Notes under the pieces: model-generated | Told to the model about the DNA's origin: nothing | The model's input: only the letters and a program-made list of their open reading frames with translations | Database searches by the model: none | Part shown: one piece after another, positions 2,131 through 26,245 of the stretch | Layout: every line of letters starts with the position of its first letter | Position numbering within the stretch: position 1 is the stretch's first letter | Assembly: GCA_050749405.1 (NCBI GenBank) | Contig: JBOGRD010000015.1 | Coordinates: 4,581 to 36,580 of the forward strand | Reading direction: 5' to 3' | From: Nitrosotalea sp. | GTDB taxonomy: Archaea > Thermoproteota > Nitrososphaeria > Nitrososphaerales > Nitrosopumilaceae | DNA length: 32,000 nucleotides | Program-made: the position numbers and the translations under genes

Positions 2131-2484
2131 TTACATTGCTTTACATGAGCATTCTGTAACCACTGCACCCTTTCTTGATGCAGCCCATTGCAATAATGGA
2201 ATAATAATATGATACAGTTTAACACCATCGTCGGTTAGACTATATTCAGTTCTTGGAAGCTTTTCATCAAAATCTTTTCTGAGTATCAATCTGTTTGATT
2301 GCAGTTCATTTAATGTATTTGTCAAGGATTTTGCTGTAATCCCTTTCAATTCTCTTCCTAATTCGTTAAACCTGATGCTTTTATGATTGCCGATCTCGTT
2401 GATTACAAGCAAAGACCATTTCTTGCTTATTATGTCAATTACACCCTGTAGGGGACAGAAAAGCACAATACTTTCTCGTTTCAT
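2131..2484 (-). CDS. HxlR-family winged-helix transcriptional regulator (paralog 1)
   Basis: 117 aa. Shows the HxlR signature CPLQGVIDIISKKWSLLVINEI...FNEL...GITAKSLTNTLNELQSNRLILRK...PRTEYSLT. The C-terminal tail is ECSCKAM. Confidence 0.85.
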   Translation of the reverse strand: MKRESIVLFCPLQGVIDIISKKWSLLVINEIGNHKSIRFNELGRELKGITAKSLTNTLNELQSNRLILRKDFDEKLPRTEYSLTDDGVKLYHIIIPLLQWAASRKGAVVTECSCKAM

Positions 2485-2539
2485 ACCAGTATCTTTGAAT
2501 AAACTTCACAACTTAAGTAGTTTCCTTTGTATACTGGTA
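2484..2539. promoter_or_regulatory. Divergent HxlR / thioredoxin-like intergenic region bounded by a 9-bp inverted repeat
   Basis: TACCAGTAT (2484-2492) and ATACTGGTA (2531-2539) sit at or next to the two divergent start codons (ATG 2484 on the minus strand, ATG 2541 on the plus strand). Confidence 0.4.
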
Positions 2540-2540
2540 C

Positions 2541-2810
2541 ATGGTAGAAAATCATACATTTGAAATATTCTCTGCAAACTGTCCGTTGTGCAAGAATATT
2601 GAGATTAGAAAGAATGAAGGATGCAGCCAAACAGTCCATGACGTAAACAACATGACTACAGAAATCAAGGAAAAAATGGAAAAATATGGGATAACGGCAG
2701 TACCTACCACGGTTATAGACGGAAAATACAAAATAGTTGGAATGCCTGATTTTCCTCTAGTATGTGGTGAAGATCTGTTCAAAAAGCTTCAAAAAGAATA
2801 TCCTCTATGA
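2541..2810 (+). CDS. Small thioredoxin-fold redox-active disulfide protein (glutaredoxin/Thioredoxin_3-like), CPLC motif
   Basis: 89 aa. N-terminal FSANCPLCKN and later GITAVPTTVIDGKYKIVG (cis-Pro region), typical of small archaeal thioredoxin-fold proteins. Divergent from HxlR paralog 1 across a 56-bp gap. Confidence 0.75.
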   Translation: MVENHTFEIFSANCPLCKNIEIRKNEGCSQTVHDVNNMTTEIKEKMEKYGITAVPTTVIDGKYKIVGMPDFPLVCGEDLFKKLQKEYPL

Positions 2811-3276
2811 CGACAGAAGCACAAGAGAGGAATCTAGGGGTGGCATCTTGAAAAACTTTCGAGGCACATGTGCTTGCGCGTCTGGTGGAATAGGAATATG
2901 TCTTTGTACAGTTTTCATGAGCTTTGGTATAGTTAGTTCTGCTGTAGTAGGAGTAGCAAAAAATGCTAATGACATGTCCAATATGGGAAACATGACTGGC
3001 ATGACTATGACATCACAAAACATCATCGTGACATTCTTCTCTGGTTTCTGGGGCGAAGTAATTTTGTTTCTTTCATTTGGTGCAATGTTTTCTGGAATAT
3101 GGTTTAGTGGTAACAGAAAGATCCTACCAATCTCAGCCGCTGGTGCCATAATACTATATGTCAGCATGTATGCATATTTTTCAATTAGTTTAGAAATTAT
3201 TGGTGGCATCGTGTTGGCTTTTGCATTCGTATCAGCTTATAGTAACAGAGTTGCAAGGACAATAAAACTAGCATAG
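2764..3276 (+). CDS. Membrane protein with Cys-rich first helix (CAC...CLC) and Met-rich loop; MerT/MerC-like in style
   Basis: ORF-track frame with about 4 hydrophobic segments. Motif GTCACASGGIGICLCTVF, then loop NDMSNMGNMTGMTMTS. The track start at 2764 overlaps the upstream gene by 47 nt, so an in-frame TTG at 2848 is a plausible true start. The stop coordinate is firm. Confidence 0.65.
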   Translation: MVKICSKSFKKNILYDDRSTREESRGGILKNFRGTCACASGGIGICLCTVFMSFGIVSSAVVGVAKNANDMSNMGNMTGMTMTSQNIIVTFFSGFWGEVILFLSFGAMFSGIWFSGNRKILPISAAGAIILYVSMYAYFSISLEIIGGIVLAFAFVSAYSNRVARTIKLA

Positions 3277-3383
3277 GTTTCAAATAATTTAATCAAGATG
3301 GACATTTAGGTACAAATAGAACCTGAACTGAACAAATTGTAGATTTGTAGGATTGATTTCTTGTCATAGTCGGGTTGATTGTT

Positions 3384-3866
3384 CTACATTTTACATGCAA
3401 TCTTGACATTCTTTGAGGTATAGTACAATGAAATTGCCAGGACAATAATTGCCGCCAATTTCAGTTCTAATCCTTGAAATGGGAATAATGCCAAAGCGCC
3501 ACCAAGACCAAATACGCCTAACAAAGGTGCAGTACATACAGGACATCCTGATGCTATTACTCCAGTAAAGGCACTACATGCGCTGGAACCCGCACCCTTT
3601 TTGAAACCCAAACTTCCTGTCATATGTTTTCTACAAAGAATCAGTGCTGTGTTTAACCCTGTCAGTATTGCTATGATAAAGCCCATAGCCACTGTGGTTA
3701 CAGTGAAAGATATTCCGTACATTTGGATGTATTTTGGTAACGGAGTAGGCGTAAAATCAAAAGTGAGTGACCAAAAGAGCGCGCCTAACGATACTGAAAT
3801 TACGATTGCAGTGATGGCATAAGCTGGTTTTTTTAACACTTGACCAACGGTACTCATGTTGCTCAT
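3384..3866 (-). CDS. 160-aa four-segment membrane protein with intramembrane CPVC motif (paralog A)
   Basis: Hydrophobic segments AYAITAIVISVSLGALFWSL, ISFTVTTVAMGFIIAILTGL, ACSAFTGVIASGCPVCTAPLLGVFGLGGALALF and LKLAAIIVLAISLYY. C-terminal ...IACKM. The start overlaps the thioredoxin stop in an ATGA junction (3863-3866). Confidence 0.75.
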   Translation of the reverse strand: MSNMSTVGQVLKKPAYAITAIVISVSLGALFWSLTFDFTPTPLPKYIQMYGISFTVTTVAMGFIIAILTGLNTALILCRKHMTGSLGFKKGAGSSACSAFTGVIASGCPVCTAPLLGVFGLGGALALFPFQGLELKLAAIIVLAISLYYTSKNVKIACKM

Positions 3867-4240
3867 TTTGCCTGCACTTTCTTTGTTAGTGATGAACTCT
3901 GTGAAAGGCAGTTAGGAATTGTAGTAAGCATTTTATCAAGTTCTAAGACAAGTTTTTCTTTTGTCATGTATCCAACAAGCTCTCCTACGTTTCTACCGTC
4001 ACAAAACATCCTAAGAACCGGGATTCCCATTATACCGTTTGCCTGTGCAATGTCCTCATGTTCCTCAACGTTTACCTTGGCAAATCCCAACTTTCCTTCA
4101 TACTGCTTTGAAACTTCGTCAAATATTGGCATTAGTTTCATGCACCAAGGGCACCAGGGAGCCCAGAAATCAACTATTACAGGGATTTTTGATGATGCTA
4201 CTCTGTCCTGCCAGTCGTTTGAAATATCAATCGTTGCCAA
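3863..4240 (-). CDS. Thioredoxin (variant active site WCPWC)
   Basis: 125 aa. VIVDFWAPWCPWCMKLMPIFDE...GIMGIPVLRMF is the canonical thioredoxin layout. It must start at TTG 4240, directly abutting the upstream TAA, because the active site lies upstream of any in-frame ATG. Confidence 0.85.
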   Translation of the reverse strand: MATIDISNDWQDRVASSKIPVIVDFWAPWCPWCMKLMPIFDEVSKQYEGKLGFAKVNVEEHEDIAQANGIMGIPVLRMFCDGRNVGELVGYMTKEKLVLELDKMLTTIPNCLSQSSSLTKKVQAK

Positions 4241-4402
4241 TTAACAACACCGCACAGCATGTCTTGCAATCTCTCTTGAGCAGCTCTTGTGTTTGTTGCA
4301 GTAATCCTCACACTGCTGCGCTAATTTGGGATCCTCGTATCTAAAACCACACGCATCGCACAGATACAGTTTTTGATCTGATTCTGTTAGTTCTTTTACC
4401 AT
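4241..4402 (-). CDS. Small Cys-rich (8 Cys) zinc-ribbon-like protein, 53 aa
   Basis: This is the C-terminal part of track ORF 4241..4771, taken from ATG 4402: MVKELTESDQKLYLCDACGFRYEDPKLAQQCEDYCNKHKSCSREIARHAVRCC. It ends immediately before the thioredoxin start. The upstream part of the long ORF overlaps the HxlR gene in antisense and looks non-coding. Confidence 0.5.
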   Translation of the reverse strand: MVKELTESDQKLYLCDACGFRYEDPKLAQQCEDYCNKHKSCSREIARHAVRCC

Positions 4403-4460
4403 GTCTTCACTATGAAATTCAAAGTATTTAAGATACAAAGTTCGTAGTAGAATAGTTACT

Positions 4461-4820
4461 ATGAAAAACCAAAGTAATGCAATTTGTTTGTGTCCGCTCG
4501 ATGGCGTAATAGATACAATTGGGAAAAAATGGGGGCTATTGATAATAAACGAAATTGGCAACCACGGTAAACTTAGATACAATGAATTAATGTCAGAACT
4601 GAAAGGAATCAGTCCCTCAACGCTGGCTTCAATGCTAAAGGATTTGGAAAAAGAAGATCTTATCATAAAAGAGGTTTTCAGAGAGATTCCTCCAAGAGTA
4701 GAATATTCACTGTCTGCAAGAGGCAAGGAACTTCGAGAGGCAATAATTCCACTGATAAGATGGGCTACCAAGAAAGGAAACTATACAGTTCACTGTACTT
4801 GCAGTCTAGTTAAGAAATAG
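4461..4820 (+). CDS. HxlR-family winged-helix transcriptional regulator (paralog 2)
   Basis: 119 aa. CLCPLDGVIDTIGKKWGLLIINEIGNHGKLRYNELMSELKGISPSTLASMLKDLEKEDLIIKEVFREIPPRVEYSLS. C-terminal tail HCTCSLVKK. Divergent from the Cys-rich/thioredoxin/membrane operon across 58 bp. Confidence 0.85.
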   Translation: MKNQSNAICLCPLDGVIDTIGKKWGLLIINEIGNHGKLRYNELMSELKGISPSTLASMLKDLEKEDLIIKEVFREIPPRVEYSLSARGKELREAIIPLIRWATKKGNYTVHCTCSLVKK

Positions 4821-4887
4821 ATGACCATTAGATATGGAACAACATTGTCTTATGTCCCCGAGTTTGAATTTCTAATTCAAGCTAATC

Positions 4888-4900
4888 TTGAACTGTTCAA
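4888..4900. promoter_or_regulatory. 13-bp palindrome TTGAACTGTTCAA (site 1, upstream of the Csa3-like regulator)
   Basis: Perfect TTGAAC-T-GTTCAA, 37 nt upstream of GTG 4937. It is preceded by TTGAAT-N5-ATTCAA (4864-4880), and a half-site GTGAACTGTTTG abuts the start. Confidence 0.5.
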
Positions 4901-4936
4901 ACCAATACTTTAGTATCAATTAAGAGTGAACTGTTT

Positions 4937-5590
4937 GTGACTCCAAAGACTCTCCAGATAGCTACTTTTGGGCAAGATAAAGAGGGCATACTTGCGGGTT
5001 TACGCAACTTTCCGATTCATAAACTCATCTTACTCCATTACAAAGATGATGTAAAACTGGTAGAAGAATTTTCAAGTAATCTTCGCTCCACCCTTGGCAT
5101 TTCTATCTCTCTTAGACTAATTGCACAACCCGACATAATTCGAAGTGCCATGGAGTATGTTTCTCAAATCATAAAGGAAGAGGGAGCAAACTATGAGCAA
5201 ATTTTGATAAACGTAAGTGCGGGCGACAAAATGATAGGTTGTGCAGCACTCTCCTGCGCATTTGTAAATGGAATCAAGGCATTTGGGACTGACATGGAGG
5301 GAAATCCAATGCTTTTGCCTATCTTGAAGCTAAGTTACAACGAGATGATCTCTGACGCAAAGATCAAGATTTTACATGCAATAGACAATGCGGGAGGCTC
5401 GGTAGAAAGCCTTGATAATTTATCAAAACACTGTGAGTTTGGAAAACCACTTTTGAGTTATCACATACACGGGAGTTCGGAATCAAAGGGCTTGGTTCAG
5501 CTTGGACTTGTAGATGTTGAAAGATTAGAACGTGGGAGAACCAAGATTACCCTGAATACCCTAGGCAAGATGCTTATTTCTACGAAATAG
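4937..5590 (+). CDS. Csa3-like regulator: Rossmann/CARF-like N-domain plus C-terminal winged helix
   Basis: 217 aa, GTG start. The N-domain pattern LQIATFGQDKEGILAGL...HKLILLHY...ILINVSAGDKMIGCAAL resembles the Csa3/CARF layout (TMGF...; TGG/MR-type loop). The C-terminal part KIKILHAIDNAGGSVESLDNLSKH...GLVQLGLV is wHTH-like. The call rests on pattern resemblance only. Confidence 0.6.
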   Translation: MTPKTLQIATFGQDKEGILAGLRNFPIHKLILLHYKDDVKLVEEFSSNLRSTLGISISLRLIAQPDIIRSAMEYVSQIIKEEGANYEQILINVSAGDKMIGCAALSCAFVNGIKAFGTDMEGNPMLLPILKLSYNEMISDAKIKILHAIDNAGGSVESLDNLSKHCEFGKPLLSYHIHGSSESKGLVQLGLVDVERLERGRTKITLNTLGKMLISTK

Positions 5591-5740
5591 TTTCGATATT
5601 CCTCGTATTACCATATCTATTGGACAGGTCTCACAGTATACGGTGTGATTTGCCTGATGTTGTTCCAATTTCTCTTTTGATTCAAATTCCATATTGCATT
5701 CTGTGCATATATTCTTCGGCTCTTTTTTTTGATTTGCCAT
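5561..5740 (-). CDS. Small C2H2 zinc-finger protein, 59 aa (below ORF-track cut-off)
   Basis: Hand translation: MANQKKEPKNICTECNMEFESKEKLEQHQANHTVYCETCPIDMVIRGISKLFRRNKHLA. Contains C-x2-C-x12-H-x3-H. The 3' end overlaps the convergent 4937..5590 gene by 30 nt. Confidence 0.45.
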   Translation of the reverse strand: MANQKKEPKNICTECNMEFESKEKLEQHQANHTVYCETCPIDMVIRGISKLFRRNKHLA

Positions 5741-5777
5741 TGATACACCATATGCAAATTAGCATAAAAGGAATTCC

Positions 5778-5790
5778 TTGAACTGTTCAA
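5778..5790. promoter_or_regulatory. 13-bp palindrome TTGAACTGTTCAA (site 2, upstream of membrane protein 5850..6407)
   Basis: Identical 13-mer 60 nt upstream of ATG 5850. The flank CTTGAACTGTTCAATTTTTAATTCGATGATTTGGAAAAA resembles the flank of site 3. Confidence 0.5.
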
Positions 5791-5849
5791 TTTTTAATTC
5801 GATGATTTGGAAAAATACCTTTAACTGATTATTTTGGATTGGATATTAG

Positions 5850-6407
5850 ATGACATACAAACTTTCACAATATCCAAGAAAAGCATCGATCGGATACGGG
5901 GCAATAGCAGGCTTTGTTGCAGGGATTGTGATGATGGGCGTTGCCATGTCAACAACTGTAATGATTGGCATGCCATATGATACAATACCAAAAGCCATAG
6001 GAACTGCATTTGGTTCTCAATCAGATAATGCCGTGGCAGCAGGCCTTGGAATGCATCTTCTAACAAGCACACTGGTTGGAATAATTTTTGGCATTGTGAC
6101 TTTTAGCGCACGCAAGCTGCAAATAACAGGACTTGGGAAGGGTGTAGGATTGGGACTGGTTACAGGGATGATAGCGTTTGTTGCAATATCAATACCCGTC
6201 ACAACCAACGTGCTTCCACCGATACTTGTCAAGTTTATAATGCACATGCATCCTGGGATGACCCAACAGATGGCAATGGGCGTATTGCAGCAGAAAAAGA
6301 TGCTTATCACGTCAACTGCCATACTAAGGCATTTGGTGTATGGCGCCATACTTGGAGTAATGACAACAGTGTTGGTACTGCGAAGGAAGGCAAAGACTGT
6401 ACAATAA
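5850..6407 (+). CDS. Integral membrane protein with His-bearing helices (paralog of C-terminal half of 7262..8050)
   Basis: 185 aa. The motifs GMHLLTSTLVGIIFG and ILRHLVYGAILGV match MAHLITGTAIGAAFG and LLIHLIYGFILGV in the 262-aa neighbour. Confidence 0.75.
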   Translation: MTYKLSQYPRKASIGYGAIAGFVAGIVMMGVAMSTTVMIGMPYDTIPKAIGTAFGSQSDNAVAAGLGMHLLTSTLVGIIFGIVTFSARKLQITGLGKGVGLGLVTGMIAFVAISIPVTTNVLPPILVKFIMHMHPGMTQQMAMGVLQQKKMLITSTAILRHLVYGAILGVMTTVLVLRRKAKTVQ

Positions 6408-6476
6408 CGACTGGTTGTATGTCAGAGTAGGTGTGCATGATACAGTCGTTACAACGACTCGTCCGAACATGACAGG

Positions 6477-6513
6477 GATTCACACTGGTAGCGAATCCTT
6501 GAGGATTCAAATC
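6477..6513. repeat. Dispersed repeat R1, copy c (GATTCACACTGGTAGCGAATCCTTGAGGATTCAAATC)
   Basis: Contains nested palindromes GGATTC-N11-GAATCC and GAATCC-TTGA-GGATTC. In one frame the end reads GFKSF, like the RGFKS block of IS transposases. Confidence 0.8.
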
Positions 6514-6590
6514 TTTTAACTCTGACCTACAAAAGCAGATCTAGTAGAAATTCTAGCTATGCGTAAATATTGCGATTTCCTATTTATTGT

Positions 6591-6830
6591 ATGGTCAGCC
6601 TAGGTACAGCAAAATTAGCTGGAGTCATTATGACAATAGGCATAGTTGCCATGGCAGGTACCAACTTAGCCTTTGCACAACAACCATCATGTGGAGAGCA
6701 AGCTTACGGATACATCGGGTGTACTCCACTAGGTGCAGCACAATTGTATGGAGGCGTTTTGGTGGCAGGGGTAGTTGCTTTTGCCATAGCATGGGGAGTA
6801 GCGGGGCGCCAATACCATACGATCCCATAA
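6591..6830 (+). CDS. Small secreted/membrane-anchored 2-Cys protein
   Basis: ATG at 6591 inside track ORF 6570..6830. Signal-like LAGVIMTIGIVAMAGTNLAFA, then QQPSCGEQAYGYIGCTPLG, then a C-terminal hydrophobic helix. Confidence 0.45.
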   Translation: MVSLGTAKLAGVIMTIGIVAMAGTNLAFAQQPSCGEQAYGYIGCTPLGAAQLYGGVLVAGVVAFAIAWGVAGRQYHTIP

Positions 6831-6907
6831 CTTCAACTAAGATCTCAAACCTGAACGGAGTCAATGCCTAGAACAAATCATGATTCATCAACCAAAGGAA
6901 ACAGAAA

Positions 6908-6931
6908 AATCAACCGATAAGGTGGCAGTTC
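6908..6931. repeat. Repeat R2, copy 1 (ATCAACCGATAAGGTGGCAGTTCC)
   Basis: Matches 16473-16497 apart from 3 positions. A degenerate tandem unit lies immediately upstream (ATCAACCAAAGGAAACAG). Confidence 0.7.
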
Positions 6932-6961
6932 CTTGAAAACTATTTTGTATCCTGTAGGAAT

Positions 6962-7123
6962 TTAGCTAAAGTCAAACAAAAACTTTGATGGATCAGCGTC
7001 AAACTCAGACTTACAGTTGGAACAACAAAAGTAGACGTCCTTTCCATCCATGGTTGATTTCAAGCTAGTTTGTCCTGCATCCACTTCCATACCACAAACG
7101 GGATCGATTGCCATTTCTGTCAT
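6962..7123 (-). CDS. YHS-domain (TRASH-type metal-binding) protein, 53 aa (below ORF-track cut-off)
   Basis: Hand translation: MTEMAIDPVCGMEVDAGQTSLKSTMDGKDVYFCCSNCKSEFDADPSKFLFDFS. DPVCGM...YFC(C)S..C..F...P is the YHS-domain consensus. Confidence 0.7.
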   Translation of the reverse strand: MTEMAIDPVCGMEVDAGQTSLKSTMDGKDVYFCCSNCKSEFDADPSKFLFDFS

Positions 7124-7261
7124 ATAATATGCAGAAGTGCAATATAACTACGATCTAAATATCAGTAGACATTAGAACTTCAGACTTATAATCATCTGCC
7201 CATGTAGTAGAGATCCTGACCTACTGCGTAAATACTGGAATCACGTATTATATGCAAGGAT

Positions 7262-8050
7262 ATGGCGTCAGCAACACATGTCACTTGGGGCCTTGGTAAC
7301 TCACTTATCATATCGCTGATTGCCATTCTGTATATTCTACTTCCACTGCCTTTCTTTTTAATTGGAAAAGCTGACAGCAAAACCATATTGAGCTTTTACC
7401 AGTATACATTACCATTTCTTTCCGGCGGTTTGATTCTGCTCTTTCTATTCAAGCAGAACAGAATAGTCACTCCTACAAAAAAAGAGAAGGAAAGAATTGG
7501 CTCAGAGAGAAGGCAGATAATCAGGCTGGGTACACTTGCAGGTTGTGTAGCCTCATTTTCCATATTAGTGCCAATATTTTTGGGCGAGTACTTTACTAAT
7601 TTACCTGAAGGTACGTATCTATCAGTACTTGGGGCGGTGATGGGCAATTATATCGGAAATACCCATTACAGTTTTCTACTGGGTTTTATGGCACATCTGA
7701 TAACCGGTACTGCCATAGGCGCAGCATTTGGTTGTATAATGTCGATATCTGAGATCTTTGATTTGAGGCGTCAAAGTCAGACAATAGCATTTGGCACAGG
7801 TGCAGGCTTTATCACTTTTCTGGCCCTTTTCAATCCCATCTCCCGCCTAGGTATCGAACCGTATCTGCAACAATCGCTACAAATTACAATGAGCGGTGCT
7901 AACCAAATAGCAATTGAGAATGCCGCAAGGAACATAATGTCGAATTTGCTGGCAGGCTCTCTTCTCATACACCTAATTTACGGATTCATACTGGGGGTAA
8001 CTTTTTACACTCTGGCAAGAAAGTATTCCAGGTTCGGTAGATATTACTAG
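7262..8050 (+). CDS. Integral membrane protein, paralog of 5850..6407 with N-terminal extension
   Basis: 262 aa, multi-pass. Shares the His-bearing helix motifs with the 185-aa protein. Confidence 0.75.
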   Translation: MASATHVTWGLGNSLIISLIAILYILLPLPFFLIGKADSKTILSFYQYTLPFLSGGLILLFLFKQNRIVTPTKKEKERIGSERRQIIRLGTLAGCVASFSILVPIFLGEYFTNLPEGTYLSVLGAVMGNYIGNTHYSFLLGFMAHLITGTAIGAAFGCIMSISEIFDLRRQSQTIAFGTGAGFITFLALFNPISRLGIEPYLQQSLQITMSGANQIAIENAARNIMSNLLAGSLLIHLIYGFILGVTFYTLARKYSRFGRYY

Positions 8051-8118
8051 TGAACCCCAGTTCTACTTTTTTGTTCTGGTTACTGTAGGGCCTGCGGTTA
8101 CAGAATGTTCTTGTAAGA

Positions 8119-8229
8119 TTATGCGTTGAGCCAACAGCAACAATCATCCAGAGTGCAATTTGGACATTCTCTTCCCGATTTCCTGGATTTGCACTCTTCT
8201 GGCAAACACCCGCAATCTGCACATGTCAT
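8119..8229 (-). CDS. Very Cys-rich 36-aa peptide (9 Cys), zinc-ribbon/metallothionein-like (below ORF-track cut-off)
   Basis: Hand translation: MTCADCGCLPEECKSRKSGRECPNCTLDDCCCWLNA. The ATG lies 19 nt downstream of the stop of the 8248..8730 membrane gene on the same strand. A different-frame 78-aa track ORF (7986..8222) looks random. Confidence 0.4.
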   Translation of the reverse strand: MTCADCGCLPEECKSRKSGRECPNCTLDDCCCWLNA

Positions 8230-8247
8230 TTTACTATTCAAACATGG

Positions 8248-8730
8248 TCACTTTGTAATCTTACACTGTGCTGTTATCCCCTTCACGGAAACATAGTAAG
8301 TGTATCCCAAAATACCAATAGAAACCAGACGTAACGGAATCTCATAGTTAGTAAGAAAGGCAGTTGCAGTCCCACCAACGGCCCCAAATGCCGATACAAT
8401 TGCAAATCCAATGGACCCACAGCTGCAAGTTCCGGCACTTGCTCCAATTATGGAACCCAAAAATCCAGTTCCTGATTTCCTAACTCCACTTTTCATCAAT
8501 CTAATACGATAGATGCTAAGGCTAATGACAATTCCAGATAGAGCTGCAACTATTACAATTAAAACAAAATTAGCAATCTCATATGTTGGAACATAAAAAA
8601 GAAAATTTGGTGAAAAGAAGATAAATTCCGAGATTATAGAGAGAGCTATTAGTAGAGATGAAAATATGGATATGGTCAAAGCTAGGTATCTTTTTCTTGA
8701 AAAGACTAGTCGTAATGCTTCTCTTTGCAA
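8248..8730 (-). CDS. 160-aa four-segment membrane protein with intramembrane CSC motif (paralog B of 3384..3866)
   Basis: Same length and architecture as paralog A. GSIIGASAGTCSCGSIGFAIVSAFGAVGG aligns with GVIASGCPVCTAPLLGVFGLGGA. Shared C-terminal YY.S.K...A.CK. TTG start. Confidence 0.7.
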   Translation of the reverse strand: MQREALRLVFSRKRYLALTISIFSSLLIALSIISEFIFFSPNFLFYVPTYEIANFVLIVIVAALSGIVISLSIYRIRLMKSGVRKSGTGFLGSIIGASAGTCSCGSIGFAIVSAFGAVGGTATAFLTNYEIPLRLVSIGILGYTYYVSVKGITAQCKITK

Positions 8731-8789
8731 TCTACCCTTTCAGGGTGAAACAAATTATTTAACAATATTTCCAATTTGAGTATATTATC

Positions 8790-8802
8790 TTGAACTGTTA
8801 AA
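8790..8802. promoter_or_regulatory. Palindrome variant TTGAACTGTTAAA (site 3, divergent region between 8248..8730 and DsbA-like gene)
   Basis: 12 of 13 positions match. The flank CTTGAACTGTTAAAGTTTTGATTGATTTG...ATTTGGAAAAAA parallels site 2. Confidence 0.45.
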
Positions 8803-8881
8803 GTTTTGATTGATTTGAGTTTCATCTCAGAATCAATTTGGAAAAAAGGTTAAATCATAAAACCCAGTCTAAACTGCAGCA

Positions 8882-9805
8882 ATGAAACAAATTCATAGAT
8901 TATTTGTTCTATCTTCTATCTTGCTGATTGCTGGTACTTCTTATGCTTATGCTCAATATGGTGATAACATGCAAGGAAATAGCATGATGAATAATACGAT
9001 GTCTGGCGGGGGATCTAGCAGCAACCAAGCCATGATGAATGATAAGAACATGTCAAGTAGCATGATGAACGGTGGAAACATGTCAGGTGGCGGCTGGGGC
9101 AACAACAATACAATGATGAATGAAAGTAGCATGATGATGTCAAGCGGTAGTATTGATCTGTCAATGGCATCACCAGTACGAGGTTCTACAAGTGCTCCTG
9201 TTACAATAGTTGAATTTGGGGACTATCAGTGTCCAAAGTGTGATGCATGGTTCAAAAATGAAGAGCCTGCCATCCAGTCCAATTACATTGATACCAATAA
9301 GGCCAAGCTATACTATGTCGACTTTCCGTTCTTGGGTGCTGATTCACCAGTGGCAGCCCAAGCTGCACATTGTGCGGGAGATCAGGGAAAGTACTGGGAG
9401 TATCATGATTATTTGTATGCCAATCAACAAGGCGTTCAAAGCGGATGGGCAAGTGCAGACAACCTGAAATCATATGCTGCTACTTTAGGACTTGATACAG
9501 CCAAGTTCAACTCTTGCCTTGATTCTGGGAAATATGCTGACGCAGTATCCCATAACAAGGACATCGGAGTTTCAAAGGGAATACAAGGAACACCGGCATT
9601 TTTCATAATTGGACCCACCGGTACCATGACTGAGATCATGGGACCGCAACCTGCATCTGAGTTTTCTACGGTAATTGACCAAATAAGCACTCAGACAGTA
9701 CCTGAGTTTGGTTCCATTGCATCAATTGTGTTAATCGTTGCCGTAATTAGTGTAGTCGTGTTAACTGCAAAAACTAGAGTGACCTCAAGACTGAATTTGG
9801 TTTAG
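8882..9805 (+). CDS. DsbA-family thiol:disulfide oxidoreductase with Met/Asn-rich N-region and PEFG-type C-terminal anchor
   Basis: 307 aa. Signal peptide (LFVLSSILLIAGTSYAYA), then a low-complexity Met-rich segment, then the DsbA-like core VTIVEFGDYQCPKCDAWF...GIQGTPAFFI. The C-terminus is VPEFG plus a hydrophobic helix plus a basic tail. Confidence 0.85.
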   Translation: MKQIHRLFVLSSILLIAGTSYAYAQYGDNMQGNSMMNNTMSGGGSSSNQAMMNDKNMSSSMMNGGNMSGGGWGNNNTMMNESSMMMSSGSIDLSMASPVRGSTSAPVTIVEFGDYQCPKCDAWFKNEEPAIQSNYIDTNKAKLYYVDFPFLGADSPVAAQAAHCAGDQGKYWEYHDYLYANQQGVQSGWASADNLKSYAATLGLDTAKFNSCLDSGKYADAVSHNKDIGVSKGIQGTPAFFIIGPTGTMTEIMGPQPASEFSTVIDQISTQTVPEFGSIASIVLIVAVISVVVLTAKTRVTSRLNLV

Positions 9806-9927: not shown

Positions 9928-10058
9928 ATTTTTTTCAAGATCAGCAACATATTGCCTGTATGAATTCAGCAGCATATCGTACAAATCAAACAACCTTGAG
10001 GCCGAAGGTCCTAGAATTGCTGCACTGATCTCAGGATCATTTATCATGTTTTCAGGCT
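9928..10058. repeat. 131-bp direct repeat, copy 1
   Basis: Matches 12088..12218 at a constant offset of 2160 bp, with 2 mismatches (9940 and 10028). On the minus strand it covers 11 nt of leader plus the first 40 codons of a 43-aa ORF (10047..9916, MINDPEISAAILGPSASRLFDLYDMLLNSYRQYVADLEKNQRL). Confidence 0.9.
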
Positions 10059-10088
10059 GGCGCAGTTTTTTATTTTCATTGACCTAAC

Positions 10089-10283
10089 TCACTCCAGACT
10101 TTCTGCTAGCTTGTCAAAGGATTGGTTCCATCCCTGCTTCATATTATCTAGCATTGTAAAATTGATTACCTCCGTAGTGGGATATTTCAAAGTCATTTTT
10201 GTCTTGCCGCCTTGATCTTCAAAAGCAATCGGAAACCCTTCATCACAGGCATATCTTTTAATAGTTATGTAACCATAATGTTG
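10089..10283 (-). pseudogene. 3' fragment of an SRPBCC/AHSA1-like gene (about 64 C-terminal codons, no start)
   Basis: Hand translation: QHYGYITIKRYACDEGFPIAFEDQGGKTKMTLKYPTTEVINFTMLDNMKQGWNQSFDKLAESLE. The ending ...GW...F.KLA..LE is typical of this fold family. The frame is closed by a stop at 10284-10286, where the AbiEi region begins. Confidence 0.5.
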
Positions 10284-10295
10284 TTAGAAGACATT

Positions 10296-11117
10296 ATGGT
10301 AGCACAGAAATTAAGACTAGGCCCTACAGAATTAAAGCTATGGCTCACACTGGAGAAGGAAGGGAAGTCTGTCTTCAAGACGGATGACGCGTATAGGATT
10401 TTAGGAACAAGCAAGGACTCTGTGAACACTGCCCTTTACAGGCTCAGAAATAAAGGAAGAATTAGGGAGATAGAACGTGGCAAATACCTCCTGATCCCTG
10501 CCAAATCAGGAATTGAAGGCAAGTGGGCTGAAACGCCCTTTCTTATTGCGTCAGAACTCGTGCATCCACACTACATTGGTTTCTGGTCTGCGCTAAATTA
10601 TTGGGGCATGACAGAACAGGTGCCTGATATAACATATGTAGTTACAACAAAAAGAAGGAAAAAGAAAGAGCTAACATATGGACCAATCAATTTCGAGTTC
10701 ATCACACTTTCAAAAAAGAAATTCTTTGGAATCGTAGAAGAGAAAATCGAGGACGGAGCATTTAACATCTCTTCCAGAGAAAAAACAGTCGTAGATTGTC
10801 TTTTGTATCCGCAGTACAGCGGTGGCATTGACGAAACGATTAAGGGAATATGGGAATCACAGGACGAGCTTGACTTTGAAAAGATTCTTGATTACTCCAA
10901 GAAAATAGATGTGGATGTTGTCACCCGCAGAATTGGATACATACTGGATATGCTTGGAATTAAAAGTGACATTACGGAAAAAATTGCAAAAGAAAAGCCG
11001 AAAGGTTTCATGTGGCTTGACCCAATCGGACCAAAGAAAGTTCTAGATTATGCGAAGAAATATGGTCTTATCATAAACAGGACAAAGAAGGATCTGACTA
11101 GCTGGATGGGATACTAA
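10296..11117 (+). CDS. AbiEi-family antitoxin / wHTH transcriptional regulator (type IV TA)
   Basis: N-terminal wHTH-like LKLWLTLEKEGKSVFKTDDAYRILGTSKDSVNTALYRLRNKGRIREIERGKYLL. Placed directly upstream of an AbiEii gene with a 1-nt stop/start overlap. Start uncertain: ATG 10296 or 10278, while the track start at 10212 is probably too long. Confidence 0.8.
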   Translation: MVAQKLRLGPTELKLWLTLEKEGKSVFKTDDAYRILGTSKDSVNTALYRLRNKGRIREIERGKYLLIPAKSGIEGKWAETPFLIASELVHPHYIGFWSALNYWGMTEQVPDITYVVTTKRRKKKELTYGPINFEFITLSKKKFFGIVEEKIEDGAFNISSREKTVVDCLLYPQYSGGIDETIKGIWESQDELDFEKILDYSKKIDVDVVTRRIGYILDMLGIKSDITEKIAKEKPKGFMWLDPIGPKKVLDYAKKYGLIINRTKKDLTSWMGY

Positions 11118-11911
11118 TGATCAGCAAAGACGAGCTAAAGAGATTGGCGGGAGAGAAAAACATCAATGTGTCATCTCTGAGCAAGGACTATGCTCTTGGA
11201 TGGATCTTGTTTGGAATATCAAAAAGCTCTGTAACAAACAAACTTGTATTCAAGGGAGGAACAGCACTTTCCAAAATCTACTTTCCGGAAAACTGGAGGC
11301 TCTCAGAGGATTTGGACTTCACCATACTTGATACGGAAACTGGTCTTGATTCAATAGTAAAGATACTCAAGAACGAAGTACCCGCTATAATTCAAAGAGA
11401 AAATGGGATGATAGTGGTTTTGAAGGACAGACCACATACCAACGTAGGTTACCTTCAGAGCAGGTTCCAGTATACGGGTCCTCTCGGAAAAGATATTATA
11501 AAGATCGAGATCTCAAGGGAGGAGGTAATTGGCGAATTCAAAATTGAAAGGGTTCCACGTGTTTTTGATTATCCGGAATTTGAGGCATGTGTCTACTCGC
11601 TGAAAGATATTCTTGCTGAAAAGATGCGTTCCATGCTACAGCGCAAGAGGATAAGAGACTATTATGATGTTTGGAGATTGCTGAAAGTAAGAAAGTTCGA
11701 CAAGGAAAAAGTGACGAATCTATTTTTGGAAAAATGCAAGAGCAAAGGAATTCAGTTCAATGATGTGGACCAATTCTTTCCTGATGATCTAGTTAGTACG
11801 CTTGAACCCTATTTGGAAAAAGGACTTGGCAGGTTAAGCAGAGAGAAACTTACTCCCATCCAAACAATTCTTAATGAATTAAAAAAGTCGTTGAAAGAGT
11901 TTCTTGGATGA
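11117..11911 (+). CDS. AbiEii/AbiGii-family nucleotidyltransferase toxin (type IV TA)
   Basis: 264 aa. The motif LVFKGGTALSKIYFPENWRLSEDLDFT matches the family signature (KGGTAL...R.SEDIDF). Confidence 0.85.
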   Translation: MISKDELKRLAGEKNINVSSLSKDYALGWILFGISKSSVTNKLVFKGGTALSKIYFPENWRLSEDLDFTILDTETGLDSIVKILKNEVPAIIQRENGMIVVLKDRPHTNVGYLQSRFQYTGPLGKDIIKIEISREEVIGEFKIERVPRVFDYPEFEACVYSLKDILAEKMRSMLQRKRIRDYYDVWRLLKVRKFDKEKVTNLFLEKCKSKGIQFNDVDQFFPDDLVSTLEPYLEKGLGRLSREKLTPIQTILNELKKSLKEFLG

Positions 11912-12087: not shown

Positions 12088-12218
12088 ATTTTTTTCAAGC
12101 TCAGCAACATATTGCCTGTATGAATTCAGCAGCATATCGTACAAATCAAACAACCTTGAGGCCGAAGGTCCTAGAATTGCTGCACTGCTCTCAGGATCAT
12201 TTATCATGTTTTCAGGCT
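12088..12218. repeat. 131-bp direct repeat, copy 2
   Basis: 129 of 131 positions identical to 9928..10058. On the minus strand the ORF continues into a different tail (…AELEKNVVWCPLQFWR). The upstream context is closed by stops (TAA TGA TGA). Confidence 0.9.
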
Positions 12219-12373
12219 TGCAAGATCATCATTAGGCATGCTTACAGATTGCAATATGTTGTTAAAATTTTGATTGGTTGCTTCACTTCAATAGCAGAAA
12301 GGGGCAACACCATGTTCAAGGTCCCAGTCACAAGTCCCAGTACGATGTTGCCACATTAATAGGAATTAACAGA

Positions 12374-14582: not shown

Positions 14583-15260
14583 ATGTTGTCAGATTTTGCG
14601 TACATACCGCCCCAAGAAAAGTTCGAGTCTTCAAATATATTTAGATTCATGAAGAAATTTGGAATTAAAACATTAACAGAGTTGCTAGACAGATCAAGAT
14701 CTGACCTAGCCTGGTTCTGGGATGCTGTAAGCGACGATCTAGGCATTGTTTGGGATGAAAAATACAGCAAGGTATTTGATACAAGACTTGGAAAGCCGTG
14801 GCCCAAGTGGTTTGTAAACGGAAGAATCAACATATACAAGTCTTGCGTGGAAAAATTTCTAAAGGTACAGCCAGACAAGATAGCTTACATCTGTCTCTCA
14901 GAAGACAACTGTGAGCGTACTGTAACCTATGCTGAGCTTGACAAAGAGGTTTGTCAATTGGCAAATGCTCTAAAATCACTCGGTGTTGCAAAGGGTGATG
15001 TCGTTGCAATTTACATGCCCATGATTGCAGAAGCTGTATTTGCAATTTTGGCCTGTGCAAAAATTGGAGCCATTCATACAGTCATCTTCTCAGGGTTTAG
15101 TGCGGATTCCTTGAGGATTAGATTGCAAGATTGTAGTGCCAAGATTCTCTTTACAACAGACGGCTTTATCAGAAAAGGAAGACAGGTCTCACAGAAGAAG
15201 GTCGTAGAAAACTCATTGGTTGGGACCAAAGTATCACAAATGGTCAAAGGATTGCCATAA
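14583..15260 (+). pseudogene. Truncated AMP-forming acetyl/acyl-CoA synthetase (N-terminal ~225 codons only)
   Basis: Strong ACS-like N-terminal third: KPWPKWFVNGRINIYKSCVEKF...VTYAELDKEVCQLANALKSLGVAKGDVVAIYMPMIAEAVFAILACAKIGAIHTVIFSGFSADSLRIRLQDCSAKILFTTDG. The ORF stops before the (S/T)GTTGKPKG P-loop. Full-length family members are roughly three times longer. Transposase-derived repeats follow. Confidence 0.7.
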
Positions 15261-16647: not shown

Positions 16648-17751
16648 TCATGGAAGTGAAGGTGGAGTTGTTGCTCCAACCGGTGTTGCAGACGCGGTAT
16701 TAGACGGTTCACTTGTTCCAACTGAATTAATTGCCGAGACACGGTAGGTGTAGGTTGTCAGTGGAAGTACATTTGTGTCTGAATAAGTGGTTCCAGTTTT
16801 GCCAGTGTTTGCAACAAGAGTTGACCACGTATTTCCATTGTCAGTTGATCTCTCAATCATGTATCCTGTTATTGGAGTACCACCATTATCGCTTGGTGCA
16901 TTCCAGCTTAGATTGATTTGTAAAAGATTAGCTGTTGCAGTCAATCCGGTTGGAGGTGTTGGTACTACATTGAATGTAGTTGCGGTTGCAGTGTTAGATG
17001 GAGAGCTTGTTCCAACCGAGTTTATTGCAGATACTCTGTATGTGTATGTGGTACTGTGTACAAGTCCTGTATCAGAATATGTTGTTCCAGCAGAACCAGT
17101 ATTAGCTACAATTGTAGTCCAGGTCGTTCCACCATTGGTTGACTTTTCAATCATGTAACCTATGATGGAAGACCCGCCATTGTTTGAAGGTGCAATCCAT
17201 GATAAAGCAACTTGGGCATTACCAGCTGTTGCCCGTAGATTTTGTGGGGCAGATGGTGGCAGATACGGATTTTTCCAATATACATTAAATGTAATTCCAT
17301 TTGTTGTAAACCAATAATACTTGTAGTTTACGTTTGTAGCAGGATTATATGTACCTGGGAAGCCAACGTTTTCACTAAAAGTAAGGTTTTGATTAGGACC
17401 TGCACCAGAACATTGACTTTGGTCATATCCAAGTGTATTGTCGTAAGTCCAAATTTGCCCAGGCTGGGTATTGCCTTGACTACTCTGGTTTGCAACCTTA
17501 ACATTAACTGTCAAGGAGAATGTCTGGTTATTTAGCATCTGAAAGGATACATTGTTTTTCAGCGGATAGTAAGATTGGTTTCCAGCAATTATTGTAGCAT
17601 TGGTAATGTATGCGTTATATTGGTTGGTACAAGATGGCGGACCCATTGCAAATGCATTGTGTGAAATCATGCCAATTGATATTAGGAACAGTGAAGCAAA
17701 AATAAGTATCAGCCAATGATTCCTGCCATTGCTACTTTTCAGTAGATACAA
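16648..17751 (-). CDS. Secreted protein: variable N-domain plus two fibronectin type III domains (tandem paralog 1)
   Basis: 367 aa. Signal peptide ending AFA. Two FN3 repeats (PSAPQNLRATAGNAQVALSWIAPSNNGGSSIIGYMIEKSTNGGTTW...YTYRVSAINSVGTS). TTG start. Confidence 0.85.
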   Translation of the reverse strand: MYLLKSSNGRNHWLILIFASLFLISIGMISHNAFAMGPPSCTNQYNAYITNATIIAGNQSYYPLKNNVSFQMLNNQTFSLTVNVKVANQSSQGNTQPGQIWTYDNTLGYDQSQCSGAGPNQNLTFSENVGFPGTYNPATNVNYKYYWFTTNGITFNVYWKNPYLPPSAPQNLRATAGNAQVALSWIAPSNNGGSSIIGYMIEKSTNGGTTWTTIVANTGSAGTTYSDTGLVHSTTYTYRVSAINSVGTSSPSNTATATTFNVVPTPPTGLTATANLLQINLSWNAPSDNGGTPITGYMIERSTDNGNTWSTLVANTGKTGTTYSDTNVLPLTTYTYRVSAINSVGTSEPSNTASATPVGATTPPSLP

Positions 17752-21600: not shown

Positions 21601-21629
21601 CGCGTATAGTCTCTATGTATGTGACTGAA
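21601..21629 (-). other. 23S 3' trailer half of the processing helix
   Basis: The reverse complement of 21601-21632 (CAGTTCAGTCACATACATAGAGACTATACGCG) pairs with 24630-24660 (TTCAGTCACATA / internal loop / GACTATACACG). This resembles an archaeal bulge-helix-bulge type processing stem. Confidence 0.6.
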
Positions 21630-24628
<2,999 letters not shown>

Positions 24629-24773
24629 ATTCAGTCACATATTACACGACTATACACGACGATCATCGCTAGTGCCGGGTCTCGACTACCAGCTACGTCC
24701 TTCACCGGATAGTTTCCTATCCAGTTGCATCTTTTGTGAAGAAAGTGTGTGAACCCACACAACCCAATTTTCT
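24629..24773 (-). other. 16S-23S internal transcribed spacer, no tRNA
   Basis: About 145 nt. It is occupied by the 23S 5' stem half (24630-24660) and the 16S 3' stem half (24738-24758). No cloverleaf-compatible sequence was seen. Confidence 0.7.

Positions 24774-26245
<1,472 letters not shown>

Follow-up and report, generated by a model that had tools for sequence, protein, structure and literature searches.

Three-cysteine membrane proteins paired with thioredoxin folds in ammonia-oxidising archaea: a candidate thiol relay, tentatively for soft metals

A window of 32,000 nucleotides from a Nitrosotalea genome (assembly GCA_050749405.1, contig JBOGRD010000015.1, positions 4,581 to 36,580; all coordinates below are those of the window) was analysed because of three neighbouring gene modules, termed C, A and B in their order along the DNA, in which a thioredoxin-fold protein had been predicted to be paired with a small membrane protein bearing cysteines in a Gly-rich helix. 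All of the open reading frames (ORFs), motifs and orientations that the original prediction assigned to the three modules are present in the window, and the modules are syntenic in dozens of related loci. Module C consists of two genes on the + strand, the first of which (2541..2810) encodes an 89-residue cytoplasmic mini-thioredoxin with an 'ANCPLCK' active site (Pfam Thioredoxin_3, 34.4 bits against a cut-off of 24.8). This protein is MJ0307/MTH895-like, with PDB entries 1FO5, 1NHO and 1ILO as its closest solved structures, and falls under the cut-offs of the NCBIfam models TIGR00411 (39.1 versus 92.75 bits; E 5.8e-10) and TIGR00412 (24.9 versus 62 bits); five of six orthologues have CPLC at the active site and the remaining one has CSLC. 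The second gene encodes membrane protein C and is mechanically called as an ORF from 2764, although its true start is most likely the TTG at 2848 (hence 2848..3276), because an identical protein annotated at NCBI and most homologues begin there. Membrane protein C has 142 residues and four predicted transmembrane (TM) helices and carries GTCACASGGIGICLCTVF; a CxC...CxC cluster is found at the cytoplasmic end of TM1 and the outer loop, NDMSNMGNMTGMTM, is rich in Met. Most homologues share this signature, with C-A-C...C-L-C at the start of helix 1 followed by the Met-rich loop.

Module A is an operon on the − strand in which the gene for a 53-residue Cys-rich cytoplasmic protein (4241..4402) comes first and is followed without a gap by a thioredoxin gene (3863..4240), which in turn overlaps the start of the gene for membrane protein A (3384..3866) by 4 bases. 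The 53-residue protein has the pattern C-x2-C-x12-C-x3-C-x5-C, often ends in CC, and matches Pfam DUF7128 under the cut-off (E 1.5e-4). The thioredoxin has 125 residues and no signal peptide, is predicted to be cytoplasmic, and scores 85.7 bits on PF00085 and 93.7 bits on TIGR01068, the latter under the cut-off of 96.8 bits. Its active site, WCPWC, is unusual and was read in 11 of the 16 orthologue ORF matches, the other five being fragments in which no motif was read. Membrane protein A, of the CPxC type, has 160 residues and four TM helices and carries GVIASGCPVCTAPLLGVFGLGG; TM3 is interrupted at C108-P-V-C111, and the cytoplasmic C-terminus bears C158.

In module B, membrane protein B (8248..8730, − strand, 160 residues, carrying GASAGTCSCGSIGFAIVSAFGAVGG) is of the CxC type, with 'TCSCGS' in TM3 and C156 at the cytoplasmic C-terminus. 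Six bases downstream of it, on the same strand, lies the gene for a 40-residue cytoplasmic peptide with nine cysteines (8119..8241; consensus C-x2-C-x-C-x4-C-x7/8-C-x2-C-x4-CCC), for which there is no Pfam match. Divergent from B, on the + strand, is the gene for an exported DsbA-like oxidoreductase (8882..9805; Thioredoxin_4 102 bits, cut-off 23.2; PEFG-CTERM 32.5 bits, cut-off 25). The protein combines a signal peptide, a domain of the Thioredoxin_4/DSBA type with a CPKC active site and a 'GTP' cis-Pro loop, and a PEFG-CTERM anchor, and thus has the domain, CxxC motif, cis-Pro loop and export signal that define DsbA-like proteins; its closest solved relatives are BdbD, actinobacterial DsbA-type proteins (4PWP, 7UNN) and Staphylococcus aureus DsbA. 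Residues ~25-90, between the signal peptide and the thioredoxin domain, form a low-complexity linker rich in Met, Asn, Ser and Gly, with 9-17% Met in the region before the domain. The Met-rich linker is kept in most of the Nitrosotalea orthologues compared (loci L006-L017, L025, L041 and L067), and a Nitrosarchaeum orthologue (L044) has a linker rich in Met, His and Asp in its place.

As had been predicted, modules A and C each have a divergently encoded HxlR-type regulator, and modules A and B each contain a tiny Cys-rich ORF (those of 53 and 40 residues), both of which are conserved in related loci. The regulator opposite the mini-thioredoxin/C operon (2131..2484, − strand) scores 70.1 bits and that opposite the A operon (4461..4820, + strand) 79 bits on Pfam HxlR, for which the cut-off is 20.8. 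The former has an N-terminal 'LFCPLQGV' and a C-terminal 'ECSCK', the Cys motifs being kept in six orthologues, and is syntenic in L057, L065, L067, L075 and L076; the latter, also syntenic, has a conserved 'CLCPLDG' and a C-terminal 'HC(S/T)CS' (17 orthologues). Since the N-terminal 'CP' Cys and the C-terminal CxC are kept in nearly all HxlR orthologues, the conserved cysteines suggest a thiol- or metal-sensing site.

The prediction that one and the same pairing occurs three times needs correction, as the modules do not repeat a single gene pair. With 27% identity from end to end (E 3e-4), A and B are recognisable as paralogues within one family. C was considered as a third paralogue and rejected, as neither BLASTP nor profile comparison (hhalign P 0.018) relates it to A/B; by these comparisons C is analogous, not homologous, to A/B. 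A, B and C have zero Pfam or NCBIfam matches, even at E <= 1, the family profile retrieved no match from the PDB sequences, and the membrane domain of ten fusion proteins scanned against Pfam and NCBIfam was likewise without a family; no curated model therefore claims any of the three as a member. Word-indexed searches returned 123 matches for A, 2,041 for B and 58 for C, all of them unnamed proteins and, where an organism was named, all from Nitrososphaerota, the closest being 100% identical to a Nitrosotalea metagenome-assembled genome, whereas an exhaustive hidden Markov model (HMM) search with the A+B alignment recovered 1,550 clusters at 50% identity with E <= 1e-3 (345 at E <= 1e-10), in archaea and in bacteria. 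In addition, tblastn matches to the family lie on more than 87 plasmids from actinobacteria and haloarchaea, where it is annotated 'hypothetical protein' every time. The A/B family is thus previously unannotated, in the sense that none of the annotation libraries searched describes it.

The conservation of the cysteines was measured in an alignment of 103 diverse family members. C108, C111 and C158 (A numbering) are conserved in at least 90% of them, which bears out the expectation that the Cys motifs would be kept in relatives. The first two belong to the TM3 motif of the family, which is either G-C-P-x-C-G (A type, with the variants CAAC and CSAC) or C-S-C-G (B type), and the third is carried by the C-terminal tail, where TM4 ends on the cytoplasmic side. 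A cytoplasm-side Cys is found in 99 of the 103 members, as a single residue in 71, as CxC/CxxC in 22 and as CC in 2. Members without the tail Cys have a CC or CxxC ('ASCCSG' and 'CIDC' are examples) in the TM2-TM3 loop, which is likewise cytoplasmic. What is needed therefore seems to be a thiol at the inner membrane face and not one fixed residue, and since the inner-face Cys relocates among members, such a site requirement fits better than a fixed disulfide geometry. A Glu and a Lys/Arg are also conserved at the outer end of TM4.

Counts of Lys and Arg (the positive-inside rule) place the N-terminus, the TM2-TM3 loop and the C-terminal tail of A and B in the cytoplasm. The architecture of the fusion proteins P0417, P0428, P0374, P0398, P0429 and P0440, in which a basic linker and then an extra helix connect the four-helix domain to an outside domain that comes after it, agrees with both termini of the family domain being cytoplasmic. 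Neither outer loop of the A/B family proteins contains a Cys. An earlier AlphaFold run with 20 sequences was poor (predicted local distance difference test, pLDDT, 64) and a run with the 103-sequence alignment was used instead (pLDDT 83.6; predicted template modelling score 0.75). In the resulting model the four helices are long and TM3 breaks at G107-C108; the Cys pair would thus cap the N-terminus of an intramembrane half-helix. A Foldseek search with this model against the PDB returned nothing below E 1.7. The tail past the cytoplasm-side Cys is only 2-5 residues long and, in the model, this Cys would lie about one membrane thickness from the TM3 pair.

The window proteins were compared with the six-frame ORFs of 81 related loci, for which the genome scan used A-only and B-only alignments and thus covered the Nitrososphaerota. 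The adjacency to thioredoxin-fold genes that had been expected in related genomes was found for all three modules, although it is not invariable for A. The thioredoxin gene lies directly upstream of A in 15 of the 18 loci that have upstream DNA, all 15 metagenomic and in the order HxlR (divergent), 53-residue protein, thioredoxin, A; three N. okcheonensis-type loci keep the HxlR regulator, the 53-residue protein and A and lack the thioredoxin. All 18 have the DUF7128-like ORF of 53 residues upstream of A. A DsbA-like gene adjoins the B orthologue in 21 loci from four genera, being divergent from B in the Nitrosotalea-like loci (L006-L013, L016, L017, L025, L041, L067) and directly upstream on the same strand in L040, L044, L048, L053, L057, L058, L060 and L061, which comprise named Nitrosotenuis, Nitrosarchaeum and Nitrosopumilus and four loci from metagenome-assembled genomes of Nitrosopumilaceae/Nitrosotalea. 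The nine-Cys peptide is encoded directly 3' of B in eight loci (L007, L008, L009, L014, L015, L017, L025, L067), and the divergent arrangement of HxlR with mini-thioredoxin and C recurs in 5/5 loci that hold C; in L067 modules A, B and C are contiguous within 4.5 kb. WCPWC, CPLC and the N-terminal 'CP' Cys and C-terminal CxC of the HxlR regulators are conserved across orthologues.

In two Nitrosopumilus loci (L053 1517-3094 and L048 3436-4950) the DsbA-like protein encoded directly upstream of B has an extra N-terminal domain that we call cupredoxin-like, on the basis of its ligand motifs and a Cupredoxin_1 match of E 0.016 only; the L053 copy has amicyanin-type ligands (H...C-x2-H-x2-M) and the L048 copy is without the Cys. 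About 30 further B paralogues fall into two other synteny classes without thioredoxin-fold genes. The B2 paralogue is always directly downstream of a SlaA-like surface protein and adjoins a 96-residue secreted two-Cys protein and a TPR-like protein (L004, L021-L024, L030-L034, L036, L038, L039, L043, L046, L049), and both the B2 and the B3 paralogues adjoin secreted two-Cys proteins. A separate observation concerns L061, where a 149-residue membrane protein (3809-4256) with a 'GCCGWW' helix and a 'GCNLK' cytoplasmic loop is encoded directly upstream of the DsbA-like and B genes and may be a very divergent family member (hhalign P 0.005).

Outside the ammonia-oxidising archaea (AOA), the association of the family with thioredoxin folds extends to gene fusion. 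Two family representatives (P0417, P0428) are fused to a C-terminal DsbA-like domain, and at least four bacterial members (P0374, P0398, P0429, P0440) are fused to an outside domain of ~300 residues that contains 'YRPCCNNST.F.DCNHG' and ends in 'GGCGV'. The latter has no Pfam, NCBIfam or PDB match and is probably another undescribed Cys-rich domain. An FNR-like reductase is encoded next to a DsbA fusion in L005. An apparent fusion to cytochrome c (P0371) was discounted, as it is confined to one contig, has no signal peptide, would require the wrong topology and shows an internal Met where the start usually is. The family gene of Halorussus is overlapped by a DsbA-like gene, and that of Halobacterium lies amid trxA, a thioredoxin-family gene, an FAD oxidoreductase gene and a DsbA gene. 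A DsbA-like protein is encoded together with CcdA and a family member in Arthrobacter (two plasmids), Rhodococcus PR4, Streptomyces and Pseudonocardia, in three gene orders and often by overlapping genes.

Many of these contexts also contain metal genes. The family gene of Mycolicibacterium chubuense overlaps a TlpA gene and adjoins a multicopper oxidase gene, and actinobacterial neighbours include a Cu-type P-type ATPase with an HMA protein and a CsoR-type regulator, and a copper storage protein; further neighbours are DUF305 proteins, CopY-family regulators, PCYCGC proteins (in L083 and in Thermomicrobium roseum), rhodanese, DsrE and TauE genes. One bacterial fusion (L082) sits between a P-type ATPase and a CuA-like cupredoxin and adjoins a rhodanese, and another (L083) is accompanied by CcmH, PCYCGC, COX2-like and cytochrome c genes. 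Two AOA-like contigs (L087 2535-5513 and L110 1-2703) encode MerA, a membrane-anchored TlpA-like protein (WCTPC), an A-like and a B-like protein in succession. The L087 MerA scores 564 bits on TIGR02053, against an equivalog cut-off of 454, and ends in 'SCCVE' with the diagnostic CC, and the L110 MerA, which is truncated where its contig ends, was recognised because it matches the L087 protein. As to the analogy with Sco that had been suggested, only the TlpA-like partners in these two operons have SCO1-SenC matches, and these are weak. A truncated HxlR fragment lies upstream of the MerA operon in L087. A third archaeal locus (L109 1174-5516) is a cop-type cluster, which encodes an Lrp-HTH/TRASH regulator, a 59-residue Cys protein, a CopA-type P-type ATPase with two HMA domains, a 197-residue anchored protein rich in CC/CCC and, overlapping it, a family member, with a DsbA-like gene at the contig edge. 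The 197-residue protein was likened by eye to PCYCGC proteins and the assignment was dropped, there being no such Pfam match.

A resemblance of the Cys-bearing helices to the MerC/MerT helix had been part of the original prediction and has gained weak but specific support. Neither Pfam MerT (PF02411) nor MerC (PF03203) matches A, B or C at E <= 1; an Arthrobacter member reaches 17.3 bits on Pfam MerT (E 0.005, cut-off 32.9) over the Cys helix and the next helix. Against MerT and MerC sequences rebuilt from plasmid mer operons, hhalign with the family profile gave P 4e-4 for MerC and 3e-3 for MerT with the Cys motifs in register, compared with 0.24 for the family against Arthrobacter CcdA and 0.015 for MerT against MerC. 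When the family HMM was run on 119 multi-helix ORFs from the fetched loci, it matched, outside its own members, only MerT (E 4.2e-5, 16.3 bits) and MerC (E 0.028), and when the remaining 54 ORFs were ranked by hhalign the top two were MerT proteins. These results are consistent with distant homology between TM3-TM4 of the family and the Cys hairpin of Mer transporters, a supported lead that we do not treat as membership because it concerns a short stretch of biased composition and was judged against a small control set (54 decoys).

We tentatively interpret A and B as a thiol relay that resembles the Mer transporters and exchanges Cu(I) or Hg(II) with thioredoxin-fold partners, a reading in which our confidence is slightly less than even. 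The ligand-exchange transfer proposed for MerP to MerT to MerA serves as the model. A thiophilic metal ion would be handed from one thiol to the next in a short chain, as in MerT, MerC and MerF, the likely cargo being Cu(I) in a copper-dependent ammonia oxidiser and Hg(II) in the relatives encoded in mer operons. On the outer side a CxxC protein with a thioredoxin fold would act as partner. For B it would be the Met-rich DsbA-like protein, and for relatives either a TlpA-like protein or a Cys-rich domain that is no thioredoxin fold. From this partner the ion would pass via the intramembrane Cys pair to the cytoplasm-side Cys and then to a soluble Cys-rich acceptor or donor, namely the WCPWC thioredoxin and the 53-residue protein for A and the nine-Cys peptide for B. 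The direction could be import, for detoxification, or export, for the loading of cuproproteins. Module C would be an analogous device, composed of the four-Cys cluster in helix 1, the Met-rich outer loop and the cytoplasmic mini-thioredoxin; the Cys-bearing HxlR regulators would turn on modules A and C under thiol or metal stress, and a coexisting CcdA would keep the outer binding protein reduced. Ligand-exchange transfer is favoured because it is the simplest mechanism that uses the membrane thiol pair, the inner thiol, both partners and the mer/cop loci together. It accounts for the MerA and CopA operons, the non-thioredoxin partners, the movable inner Cys and the nine-Cys and five-Cys mini-proteins, as well as for the Met-rich segments of the DsbA-like protein and of C and for coexistence with CcdA. 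Within the window, a YHS protein and a cupredoxin encoded near the modules point the same way. Of the two hypotheses offered originally, metal hand-off has thus gained the most, through the two MerA operons, the operon with a TRASH regulator and CopA, and several actinobacterial copper islands, which make Cu(I) and Hg(II) candidate cargoes.

Several observations weigh against a metal relay. No window protein reaches a curated Mer threshold, MerA and CopA are absent from the window, and the similarity to Mer proteins covers ~40-60 residues of a Gly/Ala-rich helix. The cytoplasm-side Cys is single in 71 of 103 members where MerT, MerC and MerF have pairs, and the ~30 Nitrosotalea B paralogues adjoin SlaA-like and small secreted two-Cys proteins and not metal genes. 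Since the assignment of the cargo is based on about a dozen contexts and weak sequence similarity, it could be overturned. Three further points, the co-operonic cytoplasmic thioredoxin of A in 15 loci, where it also overlaps A, the haloarchaeal trxA, thioredoxin-family and FAD oxidoreductase neighbours, which are natural donors for a reductant relay, and the resemblance of the DsbA-like partner to a working thiol-disulfide oxidoreductase (CPxC, 'GTP' cis-Pro, oxidase relatives), are best accounted for if the family is instead a reductant conduit like CcdA/DsbD/ScsB. Electrons would then pass from thioredoxin via the cytoplasm-side Cys and the intramembrane CxxC/CxC to the exported DsbA-like or TlpA-like protein and so keep surface thiols, including the Cys ligands of cupredoxins, reduced under oxidative, Cu or Hg stress. 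Adjacency or fusion to DsbA-like or TlpA-like proteins in three phyla (the Nitrososphaerota, Halobacteria and Actinomycetota contexts), the CcmH and cytochrome c neighbours in L083, the FNR-like reductase in L005 and, in the model, the position of the CxxC at the N-terminus of a helix segment, which would be classic redox geometry, speak for such a conduit as well. Genomic context cannot separate the two, because Cu/Hg islands also host redox systems, and the Cu/Hg contexts match the precedent of Scs (PMC10907172). However, five actinobacterial operons already hold a true CcdA with a single DsbA-like protein, so that the family member would be redundant as a reductant conduit there. Thiol-disulfide exchange needs contact, and the inner Cys, with a tail of 2-5 residues, would be about one membrane thickness away from the TM3 pair. 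Moreover, CC pairs and non-thioredoxin partners fit metal binding better, similarity to DsbD_TM is lacking (hhalign 0.24) and the tightly linked nine-Cys peptide is given no role. On balance we consider a reductant conduit the main rival reading, possible but doubtful.

The other original hypothesis, a thiol-disulfide relay, thus survives in its reducing, DsbD/CcdA-like form, whereas its oxidising form fits poorly. In that form, B would be an analogue of DsbB/VKOR/MauE that re-oxidises the DsbA-like protein and delivers the electrons to quinone, cupredoxin or cytochrome c, thereby supporting disulfide formation in AOA. DsbA-like adjacency and fusion are the classic signature of a DsbB/VKOR partner, the closest solved relatives of the partner (BdbD, actinobacterial DsbA, S. 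aureus DsbA) are oxidases, and CxC is also the active site of MauE (bioRxiv 10.64898/2026.03.05.709764); the conserved Glu and Lys/Arg at the outer end of TM4, the cupredoxin-like domain of the two Nitrosopumilus partner orthologues and the secreted two-Cys proteins beside B2 and B3 could be fitted in too. Nevertheless, the near-invariant third Cys is cytoplasmic, where it would be useless to an outward-facing enzyme, and the outer loops contain no Cys although DsbB and VKOR need a second outer pair, and for these two reasons a DsbB-like oxidase is highly improbable. The cytoplasmic thioredoxin in the A operon would make no sense either, the CxC of MauE is in a periplasmic loop, and the Pfam DsbB, VKOR and MauE models give no signal in the 103 members. 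We give even less credence to a relay of sulfane sulfur, in which the Cys chain would carry S0 or persulfide between the exported thioredoxin-fold protein and cytoplasmic carriers of the rhodanese/DsrE type. It would suit the actinobacterial copies that lie by genes for rhodanese-domain, DsrE-family and TauE/SafE proteins, metallo-beta-lactamase-fold hydrolases and CsoR/CstR-type regulators, the rhodanese gene adjoining the L082 fusion and the one overlapping a Rubrobacter family gene. But no such genes lie near A, B and C in the window or in the ~80 AOA loci, ammonia oxidisers have no known need for such a relay, and the mer and cop operons would go unexplained, so that only the actinobacterial contexts fit.

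Among the remaining features of the window, the genes between modules A and B (4937-5590, 5561-5740, 5850-6407, 6962-7123 and 7262-8050) encode an HFX_2341-like protein, a C2H2 zinc-finger protein, two DUF6789-like membrane proteins and a YHS-domain protein of 53 residues. HFX_2341-like, C2H2 and DUF6789-like genes accompany the modules in L006, L010, L011, L064, L065 and L076, and in L057 HFX_2341-like and DUF6789-like genes are present with no C2H2 match. Just upstream of the modules lies the gene for a membrane-anchored plastocyanin-like cupredoxin (306-932). On the other side, a direct repeat of 134 nucleotides (9928-10061 and 12088-12221, 98% identical) brackets an AbiEi/AbiEii toxin-antitoxin pair (10212-11117 and 11117-11911), a region that looks like an inserted cassette with duplicated flanks. 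The ORF at 14583-15260 encodes only the first 225 residues of an acetyl-CoA-synthetase-like enzyme (ACAS_N and the start of the AMP-binding domain) and is likely a gene fragment. Two paralogous fibronectin-type-III surface proteins (16648-17751 and 17928-19067), an archaeal 16S-23S rRNA operon (21626-26244) and an Fe/Mn superoxide dismutase (30633-31256) are encoded further along.

To our knowledge, no dedicated Hg(II) transporter has been identified so far in archaeal mer operons, and in AOA neither the copper loading of exported cuproproteins nor the membrane partner of many DsbA-like proteins has been resolved. In a survey of mer genes, MerA was noted to stand mostly alone in early archaeal lineages (PMC8261052). 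A large unannotated family with three conserved cysteines, tied to thioredoxin folds and to mer and cop genes, is a candidate for one or more of these roles. If it relays metal, the family would be a new thiol-based device, Mer-like but using thioredoxin folds; if it relays electrons, it would be a fourth type of transmembrane disulfide relay. In the boldest version of the metal reading, A, B and their ~1,550 relatives would be an ancient unrecognised branch of soft-metal conduits, distantly akin to Mer, in which thioredoxin folds replace the MerP/CopZ-type domains, with the DsbA-like protein and B of AOA as the missing route of Cu(I) delivery or recycling for the many exported copper proteins of ammonia oxidation (the Nitrosopumilus partner with its cupredoxin-like domain being of note here) and the members in archaeal mer operons as the long-missing Hg(II) transporter. 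As a whole, we hold this version to be unlikely.

The systems that could be compared with the modules fall into several groups, and the original expectation that the membrane proteins stand outside MerC, MerT, DsbB, VKOR and DsbD/CcdA was borne out, and extends to MauE, in that no Pfam, NCBIfam or PDB sequence match assigns them there. CcdA, DsbD-beta and ScsB have the same layout of a cytoplasmic thioredoxin beside a membrane protein with intramembrane cysteines and an exported thioredoxin-fold protein opposite, and, like the A/B family, are found in copper-stress loci; going by gene adjacency, the donor and acceptor would correspond here to the thioredoxin with A and the DsbA-like protein with B. 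However, the family has four helices with both intramembrane Cys in one of them and an extra cytoplasm-side Cys, whereas CcdA/DsbD have six helices with the Cys in TM1 and TM4; the DsbD_TM and DsbD_2 models match none of the window proteins or 103 members, and the family co-occurs with real CcdA in the same actinobacterial operons. With DsbB, VKOR and MauE acting on DsbA (for example BdbC-BdbD, BdbD being closest to B's DsbA-like partner) the family shares a four-helix membrane protein adjoining or fused to a DsbA-like protein, a genomic coupling that is seen in the 21 AOA loci, P0417, P0428, Halorussus and the actinobacterial operons. It differs in that its outer loops have no Cys and its third Cys is cytoplasmic, whereas DsbB/VKOR need two outer pairs, and in having no sign of quinone binding and no sequence relation. 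The recently reported MauE oxidase also has CxC as its active site, but in a periplasmic loop (bioRxiv 10.64898/2026.03.05.709764) and not in a helix, and with no Pfam signal either, identity with MauE was ruled out.

A further likeness is that to ScsA of the Salmonella scsABCD operon, a small copper-induced membrane protein of unknown function that has a CxxC predicted to be membrane-buried, is predicted to have two helices and a lipobox, and is encoded with DsbD-like, DsbA-like and TlpA-like proteins (PMC10907172). Likened by its description in the literature, the scs operon would correspond in composition to the actinobacterial set of DsbA-like protein, CcdA and family member (or TlpA). No NCBIfam or Pfam match connects ScsA with the family, the two being compared by description and not by sequence, and the family may serve as a plausible working model for this enigmatic ScsA-type component of copper-stress operons. 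Module C, for its part, follows the logic of the ArsP_1/SO_0444 and SaoE-SaoT pairs, in that an MJ0307/MTH895-like mini-thioredoxin of ~85 residues accompanies a membrane protein with CxC. The 'CSC' permeases of the ArsP_1/SO_0444 type are paired with MTH895/ArsE, MJ0307 or SaoT mini-thioredoxins, and metal traffic has been proposed for them (bioRxiv 10.1101/2022.07.06.499078). These permeases have ~300 residues, whereas C has four helices in 142 residues and no ArsP_1 match; weak ArsP_1 matches occur in 4 of the 103 A/B-family members.

MerT, MerC and MerF share several individual features with the family. Both are small membrane proteins with a Cys pair in a Gly/Ala-rich helix that is followed by a second helix, the TM3 CPxC/CxC of the family aligning with the CC of MerT and the CAAC of MerC in the first helix of the hairpin. 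In both, the cytoplasmic face carries further Cys and the partner on the outside is a soluble protein with CxxC, transporter-outer partner fusions occur in both (L096 encodes a MerT-HMA fusion), and an operon with MerA is common to the mer transporters and to two relatives (L087, L110). The family differs in that its Cys helix is TM3 of four and not TM1, its motif is CPxC/CxC in place of CC or CAAC, its cytoplasmic Cys is mostly single and not paired, and on the outer side a thioredoxin fold or Cys-rich domain takes the place of the ferredoxin-like MerP; most of its copies lie outside mer operons and leave the curated Mer models unmatched at threshold. Overall, we rate the family as a thiol-lined membrane relay that is new in its architecture and in its partners.

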